From contig NZ_CP157522.1 of assembly GCF_049075655.1 (NCBI RefSeq), positions 352,001 through 416,000 on the forward strand: a stretch of 64,000 nucleotides of DNA. Direction: 5' to 3'. Below the pieces are notes generated by a model. That model had not been told where the DNA came from, made no database searches, and saw only the letters and a program-made list of their open reading frames with translations. Origin of the DNA: Methanothermococcus sp. Ax23 (lineage in GTDB: Archaea > AGJL01 > Methanococci > Methanococcales > Methanococcaceae). The position numbers and the translations under genes are program-made. The stretch's first letter is position 1. Each line of letters starts with the position of its first letter. Below, one piece after another: positions 1,653 to 34,319 of the stretch.

Positions 1653-4600
1653 ATGGTATATTACGATTATCAATTTTTAAAGGAAAGAGGATTTTTTGAA
1701 AATCAGGGGAAATTTAATGAAGATAGGAAGGATATAATCGTAGATACTGATAACTATCTTGCATATATGGAAGTAAATAACAACAATGAAGTAGAAGAAT
1801 TAAAAAAACTTATTTTAAACAAGTATCCAAAAATAGAATTATTATACTTCCATTATCAAACTGACAACAAAATAAAAGTATTTAGAAGAACTGGAGGGAT
1901 TAAATGGTTTTATTACTCTGATACTATATCAAAACTTGAAAGAAAAAAGAGCAAACAAGATAAACTTAAAAAATTTTCACCAGATGATGTAGATACATTA
2001 TTTGATATTAAAGATGTAATGGATAAATTTTATAAGGACCTATGGGCTCACAGGTTAGAAATGGCTAAAAGCATAACTGAATCACTCACTGACAATGATA
2101 AATTATTCATTGCTCAACATTTTATTGACAGGCTAGTATTCTTTTACTTTTTAGCACAATTAGGAGTTATTGAAGTTAATATTGATAATAACGGAAGAAC
2201 CTACAATTACAAACTAAACAAAACTGGAACAAAAGACTTTTTTAACTTATTACTCAGCAGTTTTGAAGATGATAAATTACACCAGCTATTAAATAAAATA
2301 TTCTTTGAAGGATTGGGAAATAATGAGAATGCAGTTGATGGTTTTGTTGAGCTCACAATTCCAATGAATAATATGAATATTATAATTAAAGCCCCATACT
2401 TAAACGGTGGATTATACCGGGTAAAAAAATTTAACGGCATTGATGAGACCAATATAAAATTTGATGGAATTAAAAACTTAATAGAAACACTAAACCAGTA
2501 TGATTGGGTAATTGGTGAGTATGCAGAAGAGGATGACGATTCCGTAGGCAGTTTAACGCCAGAAGTAATGGGGTATGTTTATGAAAAATTTGTTGTTGGT
2601 TTAGAGAATATTGGGGAAATAAAATTAGATGAAATAGAGGTTGGTAAAGAAGTTAAAATCGGTAGGAAAAAAGTTGGTGCATTCTATACTCCAGAAGAAA
2701 TAACCAAATACATTTCAGAGAATACTATTACACCATACTTATTTGATAGGTTGAAAGTCAGCGAAAAGTATGATGATTTTAACGAGTTTGTAGATAACGG
2801 AACACCTGAGCTCCTAAAAAAATCATTGGAAGTTTTGAATGATATTAAGATTTTAGACCCTGCATGTGGTAGTGGGCATTTTTTAGTATGTGCAGGGGAG
2901 CTCCTATTTAATATGAAGAATACTATTTGTGAAAAGTTAGAAAAAAAGGATGATTCATTTAATAGAAAGCATAATGCCTATATTGAGATTAAAAATATTA
3001 TAGTGGATAATTTGTATGGGGTGGATATTTGTGATAGTGCTGTTGAGATTACTAAATTAAGATTATGGTTATGGTTGATAAGCCAGTTAAATGATAGTTC
3101 CTCTAAATTAGAACCATTGCCTAATTTGGAGTATAATATCAAATGTGGGAATAGTCTTATTGGCTGGGTTGATGAGGAATTAGCACAGATTTCATTAAAC
3201 AACCCTTACAATGATGAAGTAAAGGGTATTTTAAAAGGTTTAAGAGTAGCATTTAAAGGAAAAGATAGGGAAGATATTGATAACGCCAAAGATTTTTTTA
3301 ATAGTCATGATTTAAATAAATATATTGACTGCTATTGCCTATTATATAAACTTTATAGGAAATCTCACGGTGAGGAAGCTAACTATTTAAAAAAAATACT
3401 AGAAACAATAAGAGTTTCAATGTATAATAGCATAACTTCTGCATTTTTAGATTATATAAATATGAAAATAAAGCCCAAATACAGCAAAAATAAACCGCCA
3501 ATTGCAAAAGAAGAGTTTGATAAACTTCAAGTGTTCCATTGGAAAGTTGATTTTGGTTGGATTATTAAAAACGGAGGATTTGATATTGTAATTGGTAATC
3601 CACCTTATGGTAATATATTAAAAGGTATTGAAAAAAAGATTCTGGAAGAAGGAAAAATATTGGATGTAATTAAAACTGATAAAAAAGGAAAGGGGACGAA
3701 GAATGCTGCTGCAATATTTATCGAAAGGTCAAAAAGTCTTTTAAATAGTAGCGGCTATTTTGGTTTTATTGTCCCAAAAGCAATTTTATATGTTTCTGAA
3801 TGGGAAAAGACTAGAAAATTTCTATTGGAAAAAGTTAATATTAAAAGGGTTGTGGATAATGGTAAGGCGTTCAAAGATGTTAAATTAGAAATGGCTACTA
3901 TAATTTTTAAAAATAATAGTGGCTATAAAAATACCAATAATGTTGTTGTTCATAGTTTATATCTTGATAATTATTCCAAATATTCCACTAATCCATACTC
4001 CATTAATATAAAATATCTCACGAGCAAAAGATTTATTACTGAAATGGATGAGGAAAAAGAAAAAATAATATCTATCATTTTAAAAGATTCTGTATTGTTA
4101 GGAGATATTTCGGAAAATTATAAGGGATTGTCAGTAAATAATAAAGTTTCCAGTGAAAAAACTGAAAATTCGGTTGAGATATTGAGGGGAAATGATATAC
4201 AGAGGTGTTATTTGCGTTCAAAATCATATATTGACAAAAAATATTTAGAAAATATTAATTTTAAAGGTTCAAACCTACAATTTCAAGAAATACTTGCCCA
4301 TATTCAAAATCCAAAACCTCATATAAAAATAACCGGAGTTTATTTAGAGGAACCGTTATTAAATTTAAATACAATTACAAATATCAAATTAACATCTGAT
4401 GAAATTAACGATAAATACTTATTATTACTTCTTCATTCAGAATTAATTAATTGGTATGTGTATAAATATATATACATTAATTCAATAAGAACCATGCACT
4501 TTTCTGGGTCATATATAGAGGATATTCCAATTAAGTTATCAGATAACCAAGATATGTTTGTTAAATTGTGCAATTGCCTTATACTATTAAATCAGACAGA

Positions 4601-4862: not shown

Positions 4863-5512
4863 TGACTCAAAGTAGATTTGAACACGGATCTGAAAATAAT
4901 GAAATGGAGTTATTTAAATTGTCCTTGGAATATTTGGAGGGATGCAAAGATTTTAAAGGAATTAAAAATCTAATTGAGAAATACGATAAAATTAAAACCA
5001 ATAAGGAGGATATGCAACATCCTAATAAAGATATACTCGTAAAATTTAAGGATACAACGAAACCTATTATTATGGAACTTCAACAATCCTCCATAGATGA
5101 TTTTAGAAAGTATGGGGATATAAGACTCGATTATGTCTCAGCATATATTCCATATATTAAAATTTGGGGAGGTTTAAAAAATTTCAATAAGAAAATAAAC
5201 AATAAAGAAATAACTATTAATAAATGGGGAAAATTAAAAGAATGTGATGCAGATATTTTAATTTATGTTATTTGTGAGTACGAGAATAATACCAAGACAT
5301 ATAAAAATGTTGATAAAATTTTGATATTGGATATAGAAGAATTACAAAACCATTTGAATTATTGGGAGAATACCTATGGATATAATCTAAAAACAAATAA
5401 TAAAAAGGATGAATACTGGGGTTCAGCGTTTATCCCCATACCTGAGAATGATGAAGTTTTACAACAATGCAAAATCAGGTCATTACAGGATTTAAAAACA
5501 AAGTTTTTATAA
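4862..5512 (+). CDS. Hypothetical protein, putative PD-(D/E)xK-type restriction endonuclease
   Basis: Translationally coupled to the MTase (TAATG overlap); D...ExQ spacing in KDILVKFKDTTKPIIMELQQS and a downstream DADILIYV strand. Confidence 0.5.
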   Translation: MTQSRFEHGSENNEMELFKLSLEYLEGCKDFKGIKNLIEKYDKIKTNKEDMQHPNKDILVKFKDTTKPIIMELQQSSIDDFRKYGDIRLDYVSAYIPYIKIWGGLKNFNKKINNKEITINKWGKLKECDADILIYVICEYENNTKTYKNVDKILILDIEELQNHLNYWENTYGYNLKTNNKKDEYWGSAFIPIPENDEVLQQCKIRSLQDLKTKFL

Positions 5513-5583
5513 ATCCGCAACTTTTGTTGCAGGCTATGAAAATCCTTCGGATTTTCATTTAATTAGTCGTTGGGCTAGGTCAA
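5513..5583 (+). repeat. Short hairpin mosaic ending in an IS200/IS605 right-end-like sequence
   Basis: Hairpins GCAAC-TTTT-GTTGC and ATGAAAATCC-TTC-GGATTTTCAT, then AATTAGTCGTTGGGCTAGGTCAA, homologous to 13241-13289. Confidence 0.65.
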
Positions 5584-9406: not shown

Positions 9407-10843
9407 ATGGAAGTATTTAAAAAAAAGGACATTTTGGGTATTCTCCATGAGCTCGGTATATTAATATCATCTATTGGGCTCATTATGATGATGCCGGTGT
9501 TTGTTGGATTGTATTTCAACGAACCTATTTATTATTTTTTTTATCCCAGTTTAATATTTACTTTACTGGGAATTTTAATAAATAAATTTACAAAACCGAT
9601 ATCTATTAAATTAAAACATGCTATGGTTGTATCTGCGCTAGCATGGTTATTTGCATCATTAATTGGAGCAATTCCTTTTTATTTAGGAATAACCCATTTT
9701 GGATATATAGATGGCGTTTTTGAAAGCATGTCCGCATGGACTACAACGGGATTTACGCTGATAAATGATGTGGAAGCCCTTCCCCACACACTGCAATTTT
9801 GGAGGAGTTTGGAGCAATGGGTTGGGGGAATAGGGGTTCTTGTAATGGTAATTACCATTCTATCAAAAACAGGAGCTTCGGCATATTATCGAGCTGAGGC
9901 TAGAGAGGAAAAGATACTTCCAAGCACATCAAGCACAGTTAAAAAAATCTGGCAGATTTATTTATTATATACCTCCATAGGAATAAGTCTCCTTTATTTA
10001 AGCGGATTATCACTTTGGGAGGCAGTGAATATCTGTATGTGCGGCATATCAACTGGTGGAATGAGTATAAGCAATTCAAGTTTTCCATATAATGATTTTG
10101 CAAAGATTGTAATGATATTAATTATGACAATTGGAGGTATTGTTTCATTTGCAGTTCATCACAAAATTTTAACTGGAAGATGGATAGATGATATTCAAAC
10201 TAAGGTGGCAATCCCAATTATTATTGTAGCCTCTTTTATTCTTGTGGCATCATCCAATATTAATCCAATTGATGCAATTTTTACAGTAGTTTCTGCTATG
10301 ACAAGCACTGGATACTCCACAGTTAATATTCCAAATTTAAGCAACCTATCTCTTGCTATTTTAATAATTATTATGATGATTGGAGGTTCCACAGGAACAA
10401 CAACGGGAGGTATAAAACTTATAAGATTCGTGATAATGGTAAAAAGTTTTTACTATAAACTAAAAGAAGCTGTGTATCCCCACAATGCAGTTATATATAA
10501 AAAACTTGGAAATAATCCACTAACACCAAATCTTATTGTGGATGCCTATATTGTGGGTTTTATTTATGTATTGCACTATGTGCTTGGAACACTTTTTCTT
10601 ATATCTCTTGGATACGACCCCTTCAAATCAATCTTTGAATCGGTTTCACTTGTGGCAAATATGGGTCTTTCTGTGAATATAGTAAATCATGATTTAAATC
10701 CAATTGGAAAACTATTTGGCATATTTTCCATGTGGGTTGGAAGATTGGAGATAATCCCAGTATATGTTCTTATAATATTGCCGATGATACTAAAAATAAA
10801 AGACTCAAAAAAAGTAATATCTAAAAAAGATATTGTCAAATAA
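9407..10843 (+). CDS. trkH: TrkH-family potassium uptake protein
   Basis: Multi-TM protein; FESMSAWTTTG, QWVGGIG, GGSTGTTTGGIK, MWVGRLEI. Confidence 0.93.
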   Translation: MEVFKKKDILGILHELGILISSIGLIMMMPVFVGLYFNEPIYYFFYPSLIFTLLGILINKFTKPISIKLKHAMVVSALAWLFASLIGAIPFYLGITHFGYIDGVFESMSAWTTTGFTLINDVEALPHTLQFWRSLEQWVGGIGVLVMVITILSKTGASAYYRAEAREEKILPSTSSTVKKIWQIYLLYTSIGISLLYLSGLSLWEAVNICMCGISTGGMSISNSSFPYNDFAKIVMILIMTIGGIVSFAVHHKILTGRWIDDIQTKVAIPIIIVASFILVASSNINPIDAIFTVVSAMTSTGYSTVNIPNLSNLSLAILIIIMMIGGSTGTTTGGIKLIRFVIMVKSFYYKLKEAVYPHNAVIYKKLGNNPLTPNLIVDAYIVGFIYVLHYVLGTLFLISLGYDPFKSIFESVSLVANMGLSVNIVNHDLNPIGKLFGIFSMWVGRLEIIPVYVLIILPMILKIKDSKKVISKKDIVK

Positions 10844-10860
10844 TTATCAAATGCTGAAAT

Positions 10861-11228
10861 CTGACCTACTCCAACGAGTGAACTCGTTGGGTTCTCGCTT
10901 ACGGTAGTAAGCGAGCAACGAAATCACGAAGTGATTTCGTCTAATTTTAGCAGGGTTTAACCCTACATGGGTGGCCAAGCCCACTACCCCTATCCCCGTT
11001 TAGGAGATTCAGGGCTACGCTGTATCACTAAGATTACTCTATCAAAACAAACCACGATACCAACCACTACCAGCGGTAGAGTTTTCACTAACCCTACCCA
11101 TTAGAACTTGGACTGGTAGCGTTACTTACTATTAATCTTCTCATATTTATATTTTACTACTTACTAGCCGATATAATGTCCGCCTCTCATCCAACGATTA
11201 AAATCGTTGGCTTTCTCGGCGGTTTATC
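10861..11228 (-). mobile_element. Non-autonomous IS200/IS605 MITE (PATE), copy A
   Basis: Near-identical to 12432-12806 and 63274-63595. On the minus strand it follows TTAC (11232-11229), has guide AAAG before the left-end hairpin CCAACGAT-TTTA-ATCGTTGG and GAAC before the right-end hairpin CCAACGAG-TTCA-CTCGTTGG, and ends in TCAG. No ORF. Confidence 0.85.
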
Positions 11229-11344
11229 GTAAAATCCCAAAATTCTAAATTTATAAGTAAAATTTTAGCATAAGGTCATGCAATTGGTTTCATTTGTTTC
11301 AAAGTATATCATTTGATAGTATCAAATTAACCAATTGCTTTATA

Positions 11345-11435
11345 AGTCCCATTGCTGGTTTCGTTGCCGTCCCCAACTCGACTTAATGGGTGTGACCCGC
11401 ACCCCCCTACCCGCTACTGGATTCGCGGTTTGCTT
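11345..11435 (-). ncRNA. GC-rich island; candidate ncRNA or tnpB 3'-end remnant
   Basis: About 55-60% GC (by eye) in an AT-rich spacer. A TATA-like AAAAATATATAC lies just upstream on the minus strand. Translation PVAGRGVRVTPIK resembles TnpB C-terminal tails. Confidence 0.35.
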
Positions 11436-11806
11436 ACTTTGTATATATTTTTCATTTAAAGTCGGAAGAAATAGTATTAAAGTGATACTTACTATAAAAC
11501 ATAGTTCGTAATAGTATTTAAAACTTATGATATTATTATTTGACAATATTTGAAACATTTGGTTCAAAAGTGTAGATGATATTATTTTTACAATAATATA
11601 GGATAATAAGTTATTTCAAAGAATTCATATTTCAACAACCTCTAACATATCATAACATTTATATATGTGTAGTATATACACAAATGTAATATCAAAGAAA
11701 TCTTTAAAAATGCGGTAGTTGATGCAGTTCCATCAAATTTAAGAATTAAACTTAAAGGGCACGGAAAAGGGTTTGAATTAGGCGATAATATAAAAAGGTG
11801 ATATTT

Positions 11807-12412
11807 ATGGAAAATATACTGCCCAACATTGAGGGAAAAACTCCAAAAATAGATAAAAATGTGTTTGTTGATAAAAGTGCAGTAATTATAGGAGATGTTA
11901 TCATAGAAAAAGATGTTTATGTAGGTCCAAACGCTGTTATAAGATGTGATGAACCTCCAACTAAGAACATATTAATAAAGGAAGGAGCTAATATTCAAGA
12001 TTTAGTGGTGATACACTGCCTTAGAAACGCACCAATAGTTGTTGGAAGAGAAACTTCAATTGCCCATTCCTCAGTAATTCATGGCCCTGCAAAAATTGGA
12101 GATAATGCATTTATTGGATTTAATTCAGTCATATTTGGAGCTGAAATTGGAAATAATGCCGTAGTAGGGCATAACTCAGTTATAGATGGAGTTGGTGGCA
12201 ATTTAAAAATACCGGATAATAAATGGATCCCTCCAAACACTTCCATATATAAAGACTCAGATGGTGTAATAAGAGCATTTTTGCCCGATGGAACTGTTCT
12301 AACGGATTTTAATAATCTTCCCGATATCCCAGAATGGTACAGGGAAGTTCCCGGGGAGGTTGTGAAAGTAAATAAGGAATTAAATTTAGGATATAAAAAA
12401 TTTATTAAATAA
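11807..12412 (+). CDS. Gamma-class carbonic anhydrase-like protein (hexapeptide repeat)
   Basis: SAVIIGDVII, NAVIRCDE, NIQDLVVIH, IAHSSVIHGP (three Zn-ligand His); RBS AGGTGA before ATG 11807. Confidence 0.85.
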   Translation: MENILPNIEGKTPKIDKNVFVDKSAVIIGDVIIEKDVYVGPNAVIRCDEPPTKNILIKEGANIQDLVVIHCLRNAPIVVGRETSIAHSSVIHGPAKIGDNAFIGFNSVIFGAEIGNNAVVGHNSVIDGVGGNLKIPDNKWIPPNTSIYKDSDGVIRAFLPDGTVLTDFNNLPDIPEWYREVPGEVVKVNKELNLGYKKFIK

Positions 12413-12431
12413 TTTTTAGTTTCAAGTTAAG

Positions 12432-12806
12432 CTGACCTACTCCAACGAGTGAACTCGTTGGGTTCTCGCTTACGGTAGTAAGCGAGCAACGAAATCACGA
12501 AGTGATTTCGTCTAATTTTAGTAGGGTTTAACCCTACAAGGGTGGCCAAGCCCACTACCCCTATCTCCGTTTAGGAGATTCAGGGCTACCTTTTGAACTT
12601 CCAACCACTACCAGCGGTAGAGTTTTCGATAACCCTACCCATAGATACTTGGACTGGTAGCGTTACTTACTACTAATCTTCACATATTTATATTTTACTA
12701 CTTACTAGCCGATATAATGTCCGCCTCTAATCCAATCTCATAAGAGATTTTACAAAACTATGTTTTGTATAACGATTAAAATCGTTGGCTTTCTCGGCGG
12801 TTTATC
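12432..12806 (-). mobile_element. Non-autonomous IS200/IS605 MITE, copy B
   Basis: Same ends as copy A (CTGACCTACTCCAACGAG...CGGCGGTTTATC|GTAA); has an extra 37-nt module at 12736-12772. Confidence 0.85.
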
Positions 12807-12989
12807 GTAAAATGTTTTTAAATAAGCATGTCGAATATATAATGTTATCATATAATCGCAAAAACCTGAGCTCGCACTATGGCAACATAAAAATCAAATG
12901 GATTAGGGATATAGTCTGTATTAATTAATATTACTTTTAATATAATTTATTCAATATATCATCGTTAAATTAACAGGTTTATTTTTTAC

Positions 12990-13289
12990 CGGCCATGTGG
13001 ATTTAACAAAAACCTACGGTTTTTATTACTGTCCTTCGCTATCGCTCGGACATCAGATAAAATTCCTTGGAATTTTATTACGTTCTTCACTACGTTCAGA
13101 AATCTCAAAACCTTCGGATTTTTTCGATTTACTCATTTCACTCATAAATTAGATGAAAACCTTCGGTTTTCATTACTTTCCTAGCTATCGCTCGGAAATG
13201 CTACAAAAACGAGGTTTGTTCAACCACGAGTGGCGAGTGAGCTACAAATTCCAAAGGAATTTGTTCAATTAGTCGTTGGAATAGGTCAG
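12990..13289 (+). repeat. Mosaic array of about 10 short palindromes (REP/BIME-like) ending in an IS605-like right end
   Basis: AT-rich perfect hairpins alternate with TCC/TTCT-(TTCGCTATCGCTC-like loop) hairpins; ends TTAGTCGTTGGAATAGGTCAG. Left boundary is uncertain. Confidence 0.7.
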
Positions 13290-13425
13290 TTATTTATATA
13301 TTGTTTATTTTCTAATTAACAACTGAAAATTTCATGATAAATAATATATATTATTTTATAAGTTTTATATAATACCACTTATTAATAGTATATTATATAT
13401 TCAAATATAAAAAGAGGGGGATATT

Positions 13426-14952
13426 ATGCATTACATCCATAAAGAAGTTAATGAACCTTTCAAAGACGGTATGGAATTGGCAAGAGAATTGAAAAATAAA
13501 ATAAAGAATCCGTCTTTAATGATATTATTAACATCCATCACAAAAAAAGACGATATTGAAGAATTAATAAATGGATTAAAAACCCACGTAGATGTTAATA
13601 ATTTAATAGGCTGCACCACAGCAGGAGAGTTTTCAAAGGAAAGATGCACCATGCAAAATGGCGTTTTATTAATGGCATTTGATGAAACATGTAAAGTAGC
13701 CATAGGGCATAAAAAAGTAGAAGGGAACCCTACAAATGTGGGCATCTCCTTAGCAGAGGATATTAAAGAAAAATTAAAAGCTAAATACCCAAAAATAAAT
13801 ATAGATGAAAAATTTTTGGGATTTGTATTCCATGATTGGAATGCAGATAATGAGAATGGTATTATAAATGGTTTAGCTGAAAGACTTTCATTTCCTATGA
13901 TTGGAGGAACCGCGGGTGATGATTTAAAATTTAATAAAACATATCAAATATATCAAGATAAGGTATTATCCGGTCACGTTTTATTGGGCGTAATTTCCCA
14001 TAAAAAAAGATTTGAAATATTATATGGTCATGGATACGAACCAACAGAATATTATGCAAGAGTAACTAAGGCAAAAGGAAATATAATTTATGAACTGGAT
14101 GGAAAACCTGCATACGATGTATATCAAGAGATGATAAGCAAAGTTTCAGGAATCCCACTGGACGATGTTAAGAACTATGCACCCTGTGATTTTAAAAATC
14201 TCGACTTTAAAATATTATATCCTTTGGGTGTTCAAGATGCCTATGGAAATTATAGAATTTTATTCTTGAATAATGTTGATGATGACCATCTCAGATTTAA
14301 ACATGAGGTAAATGAAGGAACATTCTTAGTACTAATGAAAACCTCCCCTGAAAAAACTGTTGATTCATTATATCGAGAAATTTCTAAACTAAAAAATTTC
14401 AAAAAACCATTTATATTTATTGCTGAATGTGTATGTAGAGAATTTATAAAGAATTCAAAATATGGTAATGAATTGGTTTCAAAAGATTTTGAAAGATGGT
14501 TTAACAATAAATCACATAATTCGAATATTATTAATAATTGCGTAGGATTTCTATGTTATGGAGAAAGCATCGTAAAAGATATTTTAAGATTCCATAATAC
14601 TCTAACATTTGTTGGGGTGGCATTTGATTTAGAAAGCGATGACAATATTAATTGGAAAAAAGCCTTACAGTATTTTGAATTTTCTGAGGAAGAGCTCAGC
14701 ATAATATTGGAGTTAATGAATTCAAGACTAAGTGCAAAAGAGTTATTACATAGGCTGAATATTTCTCAAACTAAATTATATGCAACATTGAATCATTTGG
14801 AAGAAAAAGGAATAATAAAATCATATGGCAAGAAACCAAAGATGTATTATATAGACAATATAAAGGAAGTTTTGAAAAAAATACATGTCGAACTGGAAAG
14901 TCAATATCGATTTAAAAAAGAAAAAAGAGAGGAGTTATTGTCCCTTCTCTAA
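13426..14952 (+). CDS. FIST-domain sensor protein with C-terminal TrmB-like winged HTH
   Basis: LIGCTTAGEF, IGGTAGDDLKF, IYELDGKPA, ECVCRE, GFLCYGE, FHNTLT FIST motifs; tail SQTKLYATLNHLEEKGII...PKMY. Confidence 0.85.
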   Translation: MHYIHKEVNEPFKDGMELARELKNKIKNPSLMILLTSITKKDDIEELINGLKTHVDVNNLIGCTTAGEFSKERCTMQNGVLLMAFDETCKVAIGHKKVEGNPTNVGISLAEDIKEKLKAKYPKINIDEKFLGFVFHDWNADNENGIINGLAERLSFPMIGGTAGDDLKFNKTYQIYQDKVLSGHVLLGVISHKKRFEILYGHGYEPTEYYARVTKAKGNIIYELDGKPAYDVYQEMISKVSGIPLDDVKNYAPCDFKNLDFKILYPLGVQDAYGNYRILFLNNVDDDHLRFKHEVNEGTFLVLMKTSPEKTVDSLYREISKLKNFKKPFIFIAECVCREFIKNSKYGNELVSKDFERWFNNKSHNSNIINNCVGFLCYGESIVKDILRFHNTLTFVGVAFDLESDDNINWKKALQYFEFSEEELSIILELMNSRLSAKELLHRLNISQTKLYATLNHLEEKGIIKSYGKKPKMYYIDNIKEVLKKIHVELESQYRFKKEKREELLSLL

Positions 14953-15402
14953 TTCTGTATATTATATCATTATATCCATATTTTATTATTTTTAAAATAA
15001 AAAAAATAGAAAAGTATATATATGCGAGAGTATATAATTAAATGTGGGTGGCGTATACACTAATTTTAAAAAATATTATTAATAGGGGTATTAAGTCCTA
15101 TAATGGACAAAATTAATCCAGGGAGGGTTAATTTAAAACTATAAGGGATTATTTACTATCCCACTTAATACTTTAACTATTTTTAAAATAATAATATAAT
15201 TATTTTAATTAATGTTTAGAATGATTTTGCCGTTTAAAACTGTTTAGTTTTTTGTGAGTATTTGTGAGTGTATGGGAGCATTTAGTTTTCGAAATGTTTA
15301 TATAGTATTTTCATGCATAGTTTATAGTGTCAATCTAATCAACCCCAAGACTTTCCTAAACCTCTTTTAAACATGTTAAAACATCCAACAAATTGTCGAA
15401 TT

Positions 15403-15533
15403 GATGGGTGGAGCTGGGGTCCCCACGACAGGGGAGGAGACTGATGACATGCTCCCAATGAACCCAGAGGGAGATGAAGTTGATGACGCCCAAGTCCAAT
15501 GTGAGCATTTACTCACCAACGCTCACATTGGAC
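15403..15533 (+). ncRNA. Candidate standalone ncRNA (HgcC/sotRNA/omegaRNA-like)
   Basis: GC-rich non-coding island with TGATGA boxes, an upstream TTTATATA (15297-15304) and a terminal perfect 13-bp stem. Confidence 0.5.
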
Positions 15534-15572
15534 AGACCCCATAAAGGGCATATATTAATTTTTTAGTTTAAT

Positions 15573-16544
15573 TCACAATGTTAGTTCTTTAAGCTTTGAT
15601 ACTACTTCATAAAAGTCTTCCTCAGAAATGTTTAAAACATCCATTTTCTTTATTTCAACCACAATGCCACTTTTTAATATTCTTTCATATATTGGACATT
15701 TGGTAATTACGGATTTTCCATTGTCTAATTTTATAACTGAGTTTATATTTTTAGATATTTCTTTTGGGTTGTTATATTCTAAAAATACGCATACTCCTTC
15801 ATTATCTTTAAAATAGGCATTTTCAAATTCATTTTTTAAAATATTTGAAAATCTAACACATTTTTTATACGTTTTTTTTGCTTTGATGGTTTCTTCCTTC
15901 ATTAAACCATAGATATTTGGAACTTTATATGTTTTCAACAGGTTTTTTAAATCATTTATTTTGTTTTTTTCAATTAACTGTTCACTTATTTTATCACTTA
16001 TTCCTATGAATCCACCATACTCACAATTTATTATTTTTGGGGAGCCCGTTGAACAAACTACCATGTCTCCATACCCACAATCTCCACCAATACCTCCTGA
16101 AATGTCCTCCACGAATATAACCTCGTTTTCTTCACAGATTTTTTTTATTTCCTTCAATGGTTGATGTGCTAAGTATCCTGCAAGGGATGTTAAAAACAAC
16201 GCATGTATATTATTTTTTTTAATTTCTTCATCCAATGTATTTATATCAACAATACCATAATTTGTTCGGAGCTCTACAATATTAAAATTAAACATTTTTG
16301 GATAAGTCATAAAACCTTTCCATCCCCCCATATCTGGAACAAGAACATTACAGTTGCTTGAAGATGTGTCTATAATGTTGTATAATATATTTGAAGCAAC
16401 ATATATTCCAGCATTCCCAGAGGGAAGAATGGATATATTTTTTTTAGAATACATTAAATCATTTATTGCATGCTTTAACTCTTCAATATTTCCTTCAACA
16501 TTTAATCTTCCTTCTAAACATGGTTTTCTATGAGGGACTATCAT
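15573..16544 (-). CDS. PLP-dependent transferase-fold protein (DegT-like, uncharacterised methanogen family)
   Basis: LPSGNAGI, FVEDISGGIG, CSTGSPKII (Schiff-base Lys), YGGFIG. Confidence 0.7.
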   Translation of the reverse strand: MIVPHRKPCLEGRLNVEGNIEELKHAINDLMYSKKNISILPSGNAGIYVASNILYNIIDTSSSNCNVLVPDMGGWKGFMTYPKMFNFNIVELRTNYGIVDINTLDEEIKKNNIHALFLTSLAGYLAHQPLKEIKKICEENEVIFVEDISGGIGGDCGYGDMVVCSTGSPKIINCEYGGFIGISDKISEQLIEKNKINDLKNLLKTYKVPNIYGLMKEETIKAKKTYKKCVRFSNILKNEFENAYFKDNEGVCVFLEYNNPKEISKNINSVIKLDNGKSVITKCPIYERILKSGIVVEIKKMDVLNISEEDFYEVVSKLKELTL

Positions 16545-20238: not shown

Positions 20239-21553
20239 GACTCATTAGGCAGGAAGCCCACGATTTCAATCGTTATACAAAACAATGTTTTGTAAAATCT
20301 CTTACGAGATGGGAGGAATGCCGTTTTTTAGCATACATCATACTTAAAACCACCAAAAACTTTTTATATATTGAATGATATACTCAATAGTATGGTGATA
20401 CCATGCTATTAACACTAAAATCTAAACTAATAACAACACCAGAACAAAAAACCACACTATTAAAAACAATGGAACGATTCAATTCAGCATGCAATTACAT
20501 ATCAAAAATAGCATTCAAAACCAAAACCTTTGGAAAAGTAAAACTACAAAAACTCGTATATTATGATGTAAGAGAAAAATACGGTTTATCATCTCAAATG
20601 GTGGTAAGAGCAATAGGAAAAGTATCAGAAAGTTATAAAACAGATAAAAAAACACTTCATAAATTCAAACCACACGGTGCAATAATATACGATGAAAGAA
20701 TACTAACAATCAAAACACCAGACACAATATCAATACTAACAATAAACGGTAGAATAAAACTACCAATCAAATTTGGAGATTATCTACCATTGGAAAATAA
20801 AAGAGTGAGAGGGCAGGCGGATTTAATCTACAAAAACGGTGAATTTTACCTAATGCTTGTTGTAGATATTCCAGAAGAGCCTCCAAACTCTTCATTTTCT
20901 AATGTGTTAGGTGTTGATTTAGGTATTGTTAATTTAGCAACTACGAGCGATGGAGTAAAATACTCGGGAGAAAAATGCACGAAAGTAAGAAAACGATACG
21001 AGAGATTAAGAGCAGAATTACAAAAGAAGAACACTTGGAGTGCTAAAAGAAAGCTTAAAAAAATAAGTGGTAGAGAAAGACGATTTAAACGGGATATAAA
21101 CCATTGTATTTCTAAACAAATCGTCATAACTGCCAAAGGCACGAACCGAGCGATTGCCTTAGAAGATTTGAAAGGCATTCGAAACGGTGGCACGGTTAAT
21201 AAGGCAGTTAAAAAACTTATTGACAGATGGGCATTCTATGAGTTAGCACAATTTATCCAGTATAAAGCAAAATTATACGGTGTTCCAGTATTCTTTGTTA
21301 ATCCACGATACACGAGCCAAACTTGCAGTAATTGCGGTCATGTGTCTAAAAATAACCGTAAAAGTCAGTCAGTATTCGTTTGTGAAAAATGTGGTTTTTC
21401 AGAGAATGCTGATGTTAATGCCGCTTTGAACATTGCCCACCGAGCAGAACAATACTATTTAGGGCTGTCCTGTCAGCCAGCCTAATGTCCTCCGCCCTAA
21501 TTATTAAGGGAGTTGGAAGGACAAGCCAACGGATTTATCCGTTGGTAGCTGAC
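20239..21553 (+). mobile_element. IS200/IS605-family (IS1341-type, tnpB-only) element
   Basis: Inserted after TCAC. Left-end guide GAAG plus hairpin; right end CAAG-CCAACGGA-TTTA-TCCGTTGG-TAGC-TGAC. No target duplication; removal restores the host ORF. Confidence 0.9.
20403..21485 (+). CDS. tnpB: RNA-guided endonuclease TnpB
   Basis: RuvC-I GVDLG, RuvC-II ALEDL, zinc finger TSQTCSNC...CEKC, RuvC-III NADVNAALNI; catalytic D-E-D intact. Confidence 0.95.
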   Translation: MLLTLKSKLITTPEQKTTLLKTMERFNSACNYISKIAFKTKTFGKVKLQKLVYYDVREKYGLSSQMVVRAIGKVSESYKTDKKTLHKFKPHGAIIYDERILTIKTPDTISILTINGRIKLPIKFGDYLPLENKRVRGQADLIYKNGEFYLMLVVDIPEEPPNSSFSNVLGVDLGIVNLATTSDGVKYSGEKCTKVRKRYERLRAELQKKNTWSAKRKLKKISGRERRFKRDINHCISKQIVITAKGTNRAIALEDLKGIRNGGTVNKAVKKLIDRWAFYELAQFIQYKAKLYGVPVFFVNPRYTSQTCSNCGHVSKNNRKSQSVFVCEKCGFSENADVNAALNIAHRAEQYYLGLSCQPA

Positions 21554-32972: not shown

Positions 32973-34319
32973 ATGAGGGATACTATGGATAAGGATAATA
33001 ATAAAAATATGGATTTAATGGACGAAACTATAAAAATATCATCAGATTTAATTAAAATAAATTCAGTTAATCCGGCATTTGGTGGATTGGGGGAAATGGA
33101 AAAGGCAGAATACGTATTAACTAAATTGAATGAGTATATACAAAAGTATAATATAAAAAATTATTCAATAAAGCAATACAATACAAAGGATGATAAGGAC
33201 ATAATACGACCAAATATTGTGGCAAAGTTCGATTTTGGAAAAGATAGAACACTCCATATAATTTCTCATCTTGATACTGTTCCAGAGGGAGATTTAAATC
33301 TTTGGAACACGAATCCTTATGAGCCAGTAATTAAGGATGGGATGATATATGGAAGAGGAAGCGAAGACAACCATAAAGCAATAGTTTCATCCCTGTTATT
33401 GTTAAAAATGATTTTTGAAGATGAAAATAAAGATAAAATTCCAAAATATAATTTGTGCCTAATATTTGTATCAGATGAAGAATGCGGCAGTAATTATGGT
33501 ATTCAACATATATTAAAACTTGACAAAAACCCAAAGGGCTTTTGTAAGTCAGCGAATCCGAAGGATTCGCTTCGATATGAAAAAGAGATTTTTGATGAAA
33601 ATGATTTAATAATAATCCCAGATTTTGGAACACCTGATGGAAATTATATAGAAATAGCAGAAAAAAATATACTATGGATTAAATTTAAAATTAAAGGAAA
33701 ACAATGTCATGGAAGCACACCAAACGATGGAATAAATACCGATGTTCTAATGTTCAATTTTGCAAATAACCTTTACAATATGCTCTATACTAAATACGAC
33801 AAAAAGGATGAGTTATTTTCTCCGTCATACTCAACCTTTGAGCCTACCATGATTTTTAACAATGTTGAAAATGTGAATACCATTCCGGGATATGTGGAAT
33901 TATGCTTTGATTGTAGAATACTCCCAGATTATGATGTCGATGAGGTTTTAAAAGATATTGATGAATTTATTGGTGATTTTAAAAATAATATTGATAAATA
34001 TTTAAAATACTACGATAAAGAGGAAGAGAAAAACATATCAATTGAATATGAAATCCTACAAAAGGAGCTCTCACAAAAAACACCTGAAAACTCTGAAATA
34101 GTTGTCGAGCTCGGGGATGCCATAAAAAAGGTATTAAACAAAGAACCGATTTTATGCGGTATGGGAGGAGGCACAGTTGGAGCATTTTTAAGGGCAAAAA
34201 ACTATGATACGGTTGTTTGGGGCATTGGTGAAGAAACTGCCCATCAACCAAATGAACATATAAAACTCGAAGATTTAATAAAGATGGCTAAAACATACTA
34301 CGAAATTTTAAAAGAATGA
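32973..34319 (+). CDS. M20 metallohydrolase (DapE-like) carrying a 19-aa palindrome-derived insertion
   Basis: SHLDTVP, GRGSEDN, SDEECGS, GKQCHGS, AHQPNE. Confidence 0.88.
   Translation: MRDTMDKDNNKNMDLMDETIKISSDLIKINSVNPAFGGLGEMEKAEYVLTKLNEYIQKYNIKNYSIKQYNTKDDKDIIRPNIVAKFDFGKDRTLHIISHLDTVPEGDLNLWNTNPYEPVIKDGMIYGRGSEDNHKAIVSSLLLLKMIFEDENKDKIPKYNLCLIFVSDEECGSNYGIQHILKLDKNPKGFCKSANPKDSLRYEKEIFDENDLIIIPDFGTPDGNYIEIAEKNILWIKFKIKGKQCHGSTPNDGINTDVLMFNFANNLYNMLYTKYDKKDELFSPSYSTFEPTMIFNNVENVNTIPGYVELCFDCRILPDYDVDEVLKDIDEFIGDFKNNIDKYLKYYDKEEEKNISIEYEILQKELSQKTPENSEIVVELGDAIKKVLNKEPILCGMGGGTVGAFLRAKNYDTVVWGIGEETAHQPNEHIKLEDLIKMAKTYYEILKE
33519..33575 (+). repeat. 57-nt double-hairpin element inserted in frame in the DapE-like gene
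   Basis: Nearly identical intergenic copy at 41577-41633. Confidence 0.85.

Follow-up and report, generated by a model that had tools for sequence, protein, structure and literature searches.

The window analysed here is a stretch of 64,000 nucleotides (nt) from Methanothermococcus sp. Ax23 (G000:C1:352001-416000, where G000 is the genome of the window, with 1.67 Mb, 32% G+C and 98.9% completeness), and at positions 12990-13289 it carries a dense row of short hairpins, the array studied below. Upstream of the array is a hexapeptide-transferase gene (11798-12412), while on its other side a gene for a FIST/TrmB regulator starts at 13426, so that the array ends 136 nt upstream of it. Next to the array, but outside it and given as context only, is a MITE (miniature inverted-repeat transposable element; 12430-12812, (-) strand, right end 12433, left end 12808), and 177 nt of unique AT-rich DNA lies between the two. 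The MITE is ~380 nt long, has more than 25 genome copies at 87-99% identity (blast) and keeps remnants of the TnpB C-terminus (tblastn, E down to 1.8e-11); it is a deletion derivative of a resident TnpB-only insertion sequence (IS) of the IS605 type. Its blast matches are of modular, mosaic make-up, and a second copy is found in the window at 10860-11240. Two small open reading frames (ORFs) at the array, 12997-13152(+) and 12986-13108(-), had no Pfam match and are taken to be by-products of open frames in the hairpin units; ARAGORN detected no tRNA in the window. The array itself is probably not a gene but a conglomerate of small non-coding mobile repeats.

The array is composed of four head-to-tail units of ~50 nt on the (+) strand, two hairpin units facing the opposite way and, finally, 21 nt of an IS right end. 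Each (+) unit has a 5-nt lead, an AT-rich hairpin, TAC, and a short stem around a conserved loop (the loop module); the loops inside the short stems of units 1, 2 and 4 are 12-13 nt long. Scores of the units are those of R1, a covariance model built on an alignment of 24 units. Unit 1 (13003-13055) consists of the lead TTAAC, the hairpin AAAAACC-TAC-GGTTTTT (13008-13024), ATTAC and the stem GTCC/GGAC (13031-13051) with the loop TTCGCTATCGCTC, and scored 66.4 bits (E 1.3e-10). Unit 2 (13052-13105; 49.4 bits) has ATCAG, the hairpin ATAAAATTCC-TT-GGAATTTTAT (13057-13078), TAC and the stem TTCT/AGAA (13083-13101) with the loop TCACTACGTTC, and its mini-stem is in the A-T form. Unit 3 (13100-13151) is decayed: ATCTC is followed by an imperfect hairpin (AAAACC-TTC-GGATTTT), TTCGA and a degenerate loop module; it had no R1 match at E<=0.01 and aligns with units 1, 2 and 4. 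Unit 4 (13146-13201; 65.4 bits) comprises ATTAG, the hairpin ATGAAAACC-TTC-GGTTTTCAT (13153-13173), TAC and the stem TTTCC/GGAAA (TTCC..GGAA at 13178-13197) with the loop TAGCTATCGCTC; its hairpin segment has nine genome matches and its loop-module segment five. Among the 3' arms are a T5 run (13020-13024) and a T6 run (13117-13122).

The two opposite-facing units, both of the form GCTACAAA...TTTGTTCAA and both of the TTGA-hairpin-AGC type, follow on the (-) strand. In one (13200-13223) the stem (ACAAA/TTTGT) has decayed, and this unit, read on the (-) strand, adjoins the loop module of unit 4; it had no R1 match and its orientation was assigned by eye. The TTGA..AGC frame encloses 13 distinct hairpins genome-wide. 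The other (13241-13268), GCT-ACAAATTCC-AAA-GGAATTTGT-TCAA, has four genome matches, plus copies that are 94-97% identical over 31-32 nt in the relatives G013, G027 and G012. Between them is the linker CCACGAGTGGCGAGTGA (13224-13240, (-) strand), which, when reverse-complemented, looks like the loop module found after TTGA-hairpin-AGC in other arrays; it is comparable to the CCACGAGCAAAGCGAGTGGG linkers in the array G000:C1:195850-196030, and the exact 17-mer has one genome match. The remaining 21 nt (13269-13289, (+) strand) are the last 21 nt of an IS/MITE right end, i.e., the 3' arm of the terminal hairpin and the terminal decamer AATAGGTCAG, with TCAG at 13286-13289; the 5' arm of this hairpin is absent. 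They had 34 genome matches at <=3 mismatches and none in a shuffled genome. At the opposite edge TTAC lies directly left of the array (12986-12989, (+) strand), as it does at left ends in the resident IS/MITE family; in DNA of such composition, chance alone is estimated to place a TTAC no more than 10 nt from the boundary in ~6% of cases. When the array was cut into 12 segments, six had further genome copies, as against none of the 12 in the shuffled genome.

A preliminary description of this DNA had reported most of these parts. The hairpins, loop modules, TTAC and TCAG that it named were all found in place, each hairpin being followed by (A)TTAC, and its IS605-like terminus proved to match the last 21 nt of the 34 IS/MITE right ends; unit 3 had been overlooked. 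Moreover its proposal that the mosaic modules have copies elsewhere, genes included, is borne out by the six recurring segments and by R1 matches in long open frames.

Folding of the sequence is stronger than composition would predict. For a 306-nt stretch the folding z was -4.37 (RNA, (+) strand), -4.82 (RNA, (-) strand) and -4.20 (DNA), and 0 of 100 dinucleotide shuffles folded as well in each of the three settings. Genome-wide, perfect hairpins (stem >=7 bp with >=2 G/C pairs) numbered 1194, versus 360 and 368 in two block shuffles (~3.3-fold excess). The stems also vary while keeping their pairing, as had been supposed: in the 24-unit alignment 86% of the cells were paired (71% in shuffles), and two-sided changes numbered 52 cells where 17.6 were expected. 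As helix 1 had been preselected in this alignment as perfect hairpins, the unbiased test is the 2-bp mini-stem of the loop module alone, which in 50 unique occurrences was G-C in 38, A-T in 10, A-C in two and G-T in none.

The units belong to a repeat family with one plan: a lead (ATTAG/ATCAG/ATTGA), an AT-rich perfect hairpin, a 3-nt linker (TAC/TGC/AGC) and a second small stem closing the conserved loop. The loop module reads YTCRCT-N-CGYTC, with its own mini-stem in which R and Y co-vary. Hairpin stems differ from copy to copy around a common pattern (A-Y-R-A-A-A-..-C), and the frames that flank them are few (TTAG..TGC, TCAG..TAC and TTGA..AGC). A perfect hairpin was found within 14 nt upstream of 36 of the 50 unique loop-module matches, compared with 710 of 20000 random positions (3.6%); therefore both halves of the unit travel together. 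R1 detected at least 50 copies in G000 at E<=0.01, and the 50 matches fell in no frame of >=80 codons (29), in open frames of 80-149 codons (8) or in frames of >=150 codons (13). Similar arrays at G000:C1:1457700 and 1587400 occupy the loop of a CCAACGGCT...AGCCGTTGG hairpin that is intact; one of these two paralogous arrays has an extra unit.

Several related structures were also noted. Within the window, a second short hairpin array (~5400-5563) stands at an ORF end and finishes in an IS right-end variant (...TTAGTCGTTGGGCTAGGTCAA), in the same layout as the array at 12990-13289. A repeat at 11270-11440 has four more copies (86-95% identity; G000:C1:232199, 1578091, 585739 and 93826), and is fused to a hairpin array at 232376-232500. 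A 452-codon ORF contains in frame, at ~33520-33575 (G000:C1:385551), a two-hairpin unit of another kind (...KNPKGFCKSANPKDSLR...), whose peptide-coding pair is also found in frame in no fewer than four further long ORFs (313974, 1121799, 1296062 and 1134572). Seven tandem 112-nt repeats at G000:C1:869135-869807 each combine a GCAAC...GTTGC hairpin with a TCCAAAA/TTTTGGA stem around the same conserved loop; the same hairpin pair also occurs singly at ~10 dispersed genomic sites, where the inserts at the tip of the stem vary. In a species genome collection the exact 21-22-nt pattern of the loop module matched 21 loci, five in one Methanothermococcus metagenome-assembled genome (MAG) and the remaining 16 spread over DPANN archaea and several phyla of bacteria. 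In viral contigs it matched twice, versus three matches for a mirror-image control. Two Woesearchaeota MAG contigs (L086, L095) had the match beside or within tRNA-like sequence, and several Clostridia MAGs (L081-L093) had it next to heptamer repeats. No claim of cross-domain spread is made, because the control matched as often and the matches outside Methanococcales may be due to chance.

Five independent comparisons of filled and empty sites show that the unit is a discrete insertion of 47-57 nt: i) a MITE right end holds a 51-nt two-hairpin insert which the full IS right end lacks; ii) in seven IS copies a 47-nt insert frameshifts tnpB, while other copies read through (...QRLTIAWDNFF...); iii) in a TnpA-bearing IS, G020 and G028 have an empty left end (GATGAATT|AGGGG) where G015 and G025 hold, at exactly that point, a 49-nt unit; iv) among three paralogous G000 IS copies the unit lies before, inside or after the GC hairpin of the left end, some copies carrying one unit and some two; v) the catalytic domain of glutamyl-tRNA synthetase contains a 57-nt (19-codon) in-frame unit (G000:C1:1008543-1008605) which is present in G000 only and absent in 7 of 7 aligned relatives, including G003 at 94% identity. 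In the third comparison, the hairpin stems of the G015 and G025 units are different and mutually compensated. The broken tnpB with its 47-nt unit occurs at G000:C1:130893 and in six other IS copies, flanked on each side by long open frames; it may be that the IS can spread with no TnpB of its own, or else that the insert is somehow tolerated. The units are discrete, mobile on evolutionary time, and clustered at hairpin-rich transposon ends and beside one another.

The IS/MITE family in which some units nest is well defined at its ends: 34 right ends finish in GGTCAG (...AGTCGTGGGAGTAGGTCAG), beyond which the flanks diverge, and at the left end TT is followed by AC in 38 of 39 copies. G000 has 22 matches to the TnpB zinc-ribbon domain, and the top score among them belongs to a TnpB gene in the window (21234-21434; 364-codon open frame). 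Also in the window, at 15300-15545, is a G+C-rich repeat of 245 nt that lacks an Rfam match and occurs in 10 copies (87-99% identity); its positions 62-96 match the DNA just 3' of the TnpB genes G000:C1:48282 and 1510781, and it is probably a MITE with the right-end RNA region of that TnpB family. A Y1 transposase was present in 5 of 30 relatives, one locus each, two of the five being truncated or interrupted by in-frame stops; all five genomes bear units.

R1 (E<=0.001) was found in 15 of the 30 relatives, which represent four of five genera and both families, with the highest counts of at least 39 (G013), 25 (G017), 24 (G003) and 18 (G010), and it was absent from the three genomes of genus g3. 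Units and TnpB genes occurred together in 13 relatives and were both missing in 12; two had units only (both incomplete genomes), and three had TnpB only. Individual hairpin modules from the array reappear, with 94-97% identity across 31-32 nt, in genera other than its own and also in the second family. None of the 30 relatives searched holds the array as a colinear copy.

Closer in time, the array is stable. It was recovered in contigs of one organism-labelled run and two metagenome runs (X1, X6 and X7) with 0, 1 and 3 differences over the spanning pieces, and the only difference within the array, 13018 G>A, breaks a stem pair and is uncompensated. At the time depth of this comparison the array is fixed. 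Two further candidates were rejected: a join of 12813 to 13337 in one X6 contig (side 22 nt, AT-rich) most likely stems from another MITE copy with a similar flank, and a C inserted behind 13183 came from a 58-nt contig with five other differences, probably a paralogous unit. Metatranscriptome contigs (X13) cover the MITE part alone (12700-12823), the array being outside their coverage.

In G012 and G003, the two closest relatives, whose FIST/TrmB protein is 83% identical, a roadblock/GTPase pair precedes this gene, separated from it by ~150 nt of plain AT-rich DNA. In G000 the same pair is located at 220.9-221.8 kb, 144 kb from the array, and no hairpins adjoin it. Therefore the array stands at a synteny break, and the G012/G003 locus provides no informative empty site. 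Relative to these two genomes, the rearrangement breakpoint upstream of FIST/TrmB coincides with the region of MITE plus array.

How the units came together can be approached through their similarities. For units 1-4 the closest copy elsewhere in the genome scored 0.85, 0.78, 0.81 and 0.89, and the closest within the array 0.81, 0.72, 0.67 and 0.81. The closest relative of unit 3 is an in-frame copy (G000:C1:1373197), in a subfamily that also includes the in-frame copy at 1003488. Accretion by separate insertions is thus favored over local duplication, as all four units are closer to copies elsewhere. The idea of a serial accretion site put forward in the preliminary description gains from this result and from the single-unit additions at other loci, but not as an ongoing process, as no sign of growth was seen here. 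Polarised growth between strains was not observed: the three data sets differ at 0-3 positions with no unit change, and no orthologous array exists in the 30 relatives. Nor does anything indicate that arrays serve as a reservoir for the copies found in genes; the two look like parallel outcomes of a single element family.

The explanation that we consider probable, though by no means certain, is that the array is a pile-up of ~50-nt mobile hairpin units on a broken transposon end. The units would insert as discrete pieces that favor hairpin-rich IS200/IS605-type ends and each other, and would sometimes land in frame within genes. At this locus, the terminal hairpin at the right end of a TnpB-type IS/MITE copy may have been struck repeatedly at its loop, four units inserting in one direction and two in the other, so that the host element would be reduced to its hairpin's 3' arm plus the terminal AATAGGTCAG. 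The array would have grown by insertion, and the units would move as hairpin-forming single strands through a structure-specific enzyme, possibly an occasional Y1 TnpA or another enzyme. Subterminal hairpins and short target words are what the Y1 TnpA of IS200/IS605 elements recognises, as known for IS608 and mentioned in PMC3119063, and this enzyme is the obvious candidate because one IS family of G000 has the same ACGAAAACC stem in its right end. Since G000 holds at least 50 copies and no Y1 transposase, the mover is expected to be a rare Y1 TnpA acting in trans, supplied in the past or occasionally, or an enzyme of another kind. As to its present role, the array probably has no function beyond setting T-runs and hairpins between two genes.

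Several observations weigh against this explanation. As regards the enzyme, the search for a RAYT/TnpA (Y1_Tnp, PF01797) that the preliminary description had proposed gave no match in the 98.9% complete G000 and no enzyme was identified, and only 5 of the 15 unit-bearing relatives have a Y1_Tnp. As regards the locus, no insertion event is documented for the array itself, there being no orthologue in the 30 relatives; no unit was gained or lost in X1, X6 and X7; the similarity margins are small for units 1 and 2; and the 5' arm of the host hairpin was not found at the left edge, which makes the history of hits at the loop a reconstruction. As regards the insertions, the five sites have no clear common target motif (left flanks TAAA, AATT, AATT, GAAG and ATTG), and the flanking 4-5-nt direct repeats (ATTAG/ATTGA-like) are imperfect, such that target duplication and target-adjacent insertion are not separated. 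Finally, the co-occurrence of units and TnpB is drawn from related genomes and is partly trivial since some units sit inside IS copies, and the R1 counts are lower bounds, with 150 of about 3400-3500 candidates scored per genome.

Local tandem duplication of one 50-nt unit, followed by divergence with pairing restored by hairpin-templated correction or selection, would account for the head-to-tail contact of the units and their 47-52-nt period, and true tandem arrays do exist elsewhere, e.g., the seven 112-nt repeats at G000:C1:869135-869807. Yet Tandem Repeats Finder reports none here, two units are in the opposite orientation, and all four (+) units are nearer to outside copies, unit 3 being of a different subfamily (0.81 vs 0.67); we therefore regard this origin as unlikely. 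Quite improbable, too, is a single non-autonomous element of the IS200/IS605 type, bounded by TTAC and TCAG and moving whole by single-strand peel-and-paste, in the manner of the palindrome-associated transposable elements (PATEs) of Haloquadratum walsbyi. TTAC exactly at the left edge and a GGTCAG terminus at the right edge fit such an element, and PATEs are described in passages of PMC3119063 as having near-terminal palindromes without inverted terminal repeats. However, the array is single-copy in the genome with a colinear copy in 0 of 30 relatives; TTAC apart, nothing in it resembles the family's left end, and TTAC in an AT-rich flank may be chance; and its right end amounts to 21 nt with a terminal hairpin that lacks the 5' arm.

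The array could instead be functional, as a structured RNA (a FIST/TrmB leader or the relic of a TnpB guide-RNA scaffold) or as a bidirectional transcription stop. Strong predicted folding on both strands, 3' arms made of T-runs (T5, T6), a position 136 nt upstream of the FIST/TrmB gene and conservation in three data sets all speak for a function, as does the statement in PMC8612924 that the IS605-type right end encodes the TnpB guide RNA. Against a function, an Rfam scan of 10000-16000 at E<=1 gave no match, the regions upstream of FIST/TrmB in G012 and G003 are plain AT-rich DNA of ~150 nt without an array, the guide-RNA region is represented by its final 21 nt alone, with no adjoining tnpB, and the sole polymorphism (13018 G>A) disrupts a stem pair with no compensation. 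A function of this kind thus seems highly improbable. The likeness to integron attC sites suggested in the preliminary description, i.e., a row of sites at which a tyrosine recombinase of this or another type exchanges cassettes, goes no further than hairpins that are imperfect, share one orientation and vary in their stems. Adjacent units touch, leaving no ORFs and hence no cassettes between them, and the three Phage_integrase matches (PF00589) lie at 286, 291 and 313 kb, at least 52 kb from the array at 365 kb, so that this origin can hardly be right.

Returning to the pile-up of mobile units, a bolder extension may be offered, which we consider possible but rather doubtful: the two-hairpin unit would be among the smallest self-contained mobile DNAs, recognised by shape, homing to IS605-type hairpins and to its own kind, building mosaic arrays, spreading horizontally across Methanococcales, and, since it strikes transposon ends and disrupts tnpB, acting as a parasite of, or a brake on, RNA-guided transposons. 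Recognition by shape more than by sequence is suggested by the co-variation of the stems. With respect to spread, hairpin modules of 94-97% identity occur across families whose FIST proteins are only ~45-57% identical. The mover in this extension would be a seldom present Y1 TnpA acting in trans, or an enzyme that so far has no link to transposition.

If the pile-up is correct, Methanococcales carry an order-wide family of ~50-nt mobile hairpin pairs which nest in TnpB/IS605-type ends, frameshift tnpB, stack into mosaics and provide essential enzymes, glutamyl-tRNA synthetase among them, with extra peptide loops. It would then also follow that foreign hairpins can enlarge the right-end (guide-RNA) regions of TnpB elements in archaea, and that many odd short insertions and small spurious ORFs in the annotation of these genomes are accounted for. 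Such a family would be an archaeal counterpart to the bacterial mosaic elements and to the small mobile repeats of Haloquadratum, in hosts that are small-genomed, fully sequenced and cultivable, and would raise a sharp question: what moves the units when Y1 transposase is absent?

Among known systems, CRISPR differs in requiring a constant repeat, as the preliminary description had rightly held: the units here are contiguous and 62-81% alike, no CRISPR repeat of Rfam was matched, and no tandem repeat was reported by Tandem Repeats Finder on the array. Nor is the array a TnpB guide RNA (omega or right-end RNA), with only its last 21 nt matching a right end and, in 12989-13289, no tnpB remnant apart from hairpin-encoded peptides.

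Bacterial interspersed mosaic elements (BIMEs) are built of repetitive extragenic palindromic (REP) hairpins that come with RAYT/TnpA-REP transposases. The array shares with them the intergenic mosaic of palindromic units in both orientations, joined by few linker types, with units that also occur singly genome-wide: here four (+) and two (-) units, TAC/AGC linkers and loop modules, and other such arrays in the same genome. It departs from them in its AT-rich, ~50-nt hairpin pairs, which also stand in frame in genes and inside IS ends, and in its archaeal host. REP units carry a conserved GTAG-type head, whereas the units here start with ATTAG/ATCAG/ATTGA followed by A-rich stems; moreover a Y1/RAYT gene as in the REP/RAYT system was not found in G000. 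The BIME-like character noted in the preliminary description therefore applies to the layout, i.e., a mosaic of both orientations with few linkers, and not to the head motif or the transposase.

Rickettsia palindromic elements (RPEs) are bacterial repeats of 100-150 bp that are tolerated in frame inside essential genes, and the units resemble them as small palindromic repeats in such positions; to our knowledge RPEs have not been described as forming mosaic arrays or targeting transposon ends. In the same archaeal order, the repeats MJRE1-3 of Methanocaldococcus jannaschii, the subject of work by Suyama, Lathe and Bork in 2005, are reportedly palindromic and mostly extragenic, with some fused in frame into protein genes; their abstract is said to make no mention of mosaic arrays, insertion into IS605-type ends or stem co-variation. 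Compared by description only, the likeness is close (mostly extragenic palindromic repeats, some in frame), and the units may be the same as MJREs or their kin. Our literature search found no description of such arrays in Methanococcales, although the 2005 MJRE work may describe related units; a passage of PMC2229807 cites the MJRE work (FEBS Lett 579:5281) and uses the term BIME.

The closest parallel comes from Haloquadratum walsbyi, on which the following statements are taken from passages of one paper (PMC3119063, Dyall-Smith et al. 2011). In this species the near-terminal palindromes of PATEs and IS605-type transposons take up insertions of the small mobile repeats SMR-A, which form conglomerates; terminal-only PATEs of 52 bp may be mobile; PATEs and SMR-A are transposase-free and tied to IS605-type (IS1341/TnpB) elements; and the repeats are mobile although the tnpA genes are pseudogenes, the movement of SMR-A being called enigmatic (PMC3119063). 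Judged by its ends, the array shares with the resident family the 21 nt at the right (34 matches) without the 5' arm of the hairpin, and at the left the flanking TTAC only. It is set apart from a PATE by being one copy in the genome, with 0 copies in 30 relatives and no presence/absence difference in X1, X6 and X7. With SMR-A, on the other hand, the units have in common their insertion in or next to near-terminal IS605-type palindromes, at left and right ends alike, and the lack of a transposase gene. SMR-A is ~110 bp long, with terminal inverted repeats and a highly conserved sequence (PMC3119063), while the units here are 47-57 nt, contain two internal hairpins with co-varying stems, occur order-wide and are found in protein-coding genes as well.

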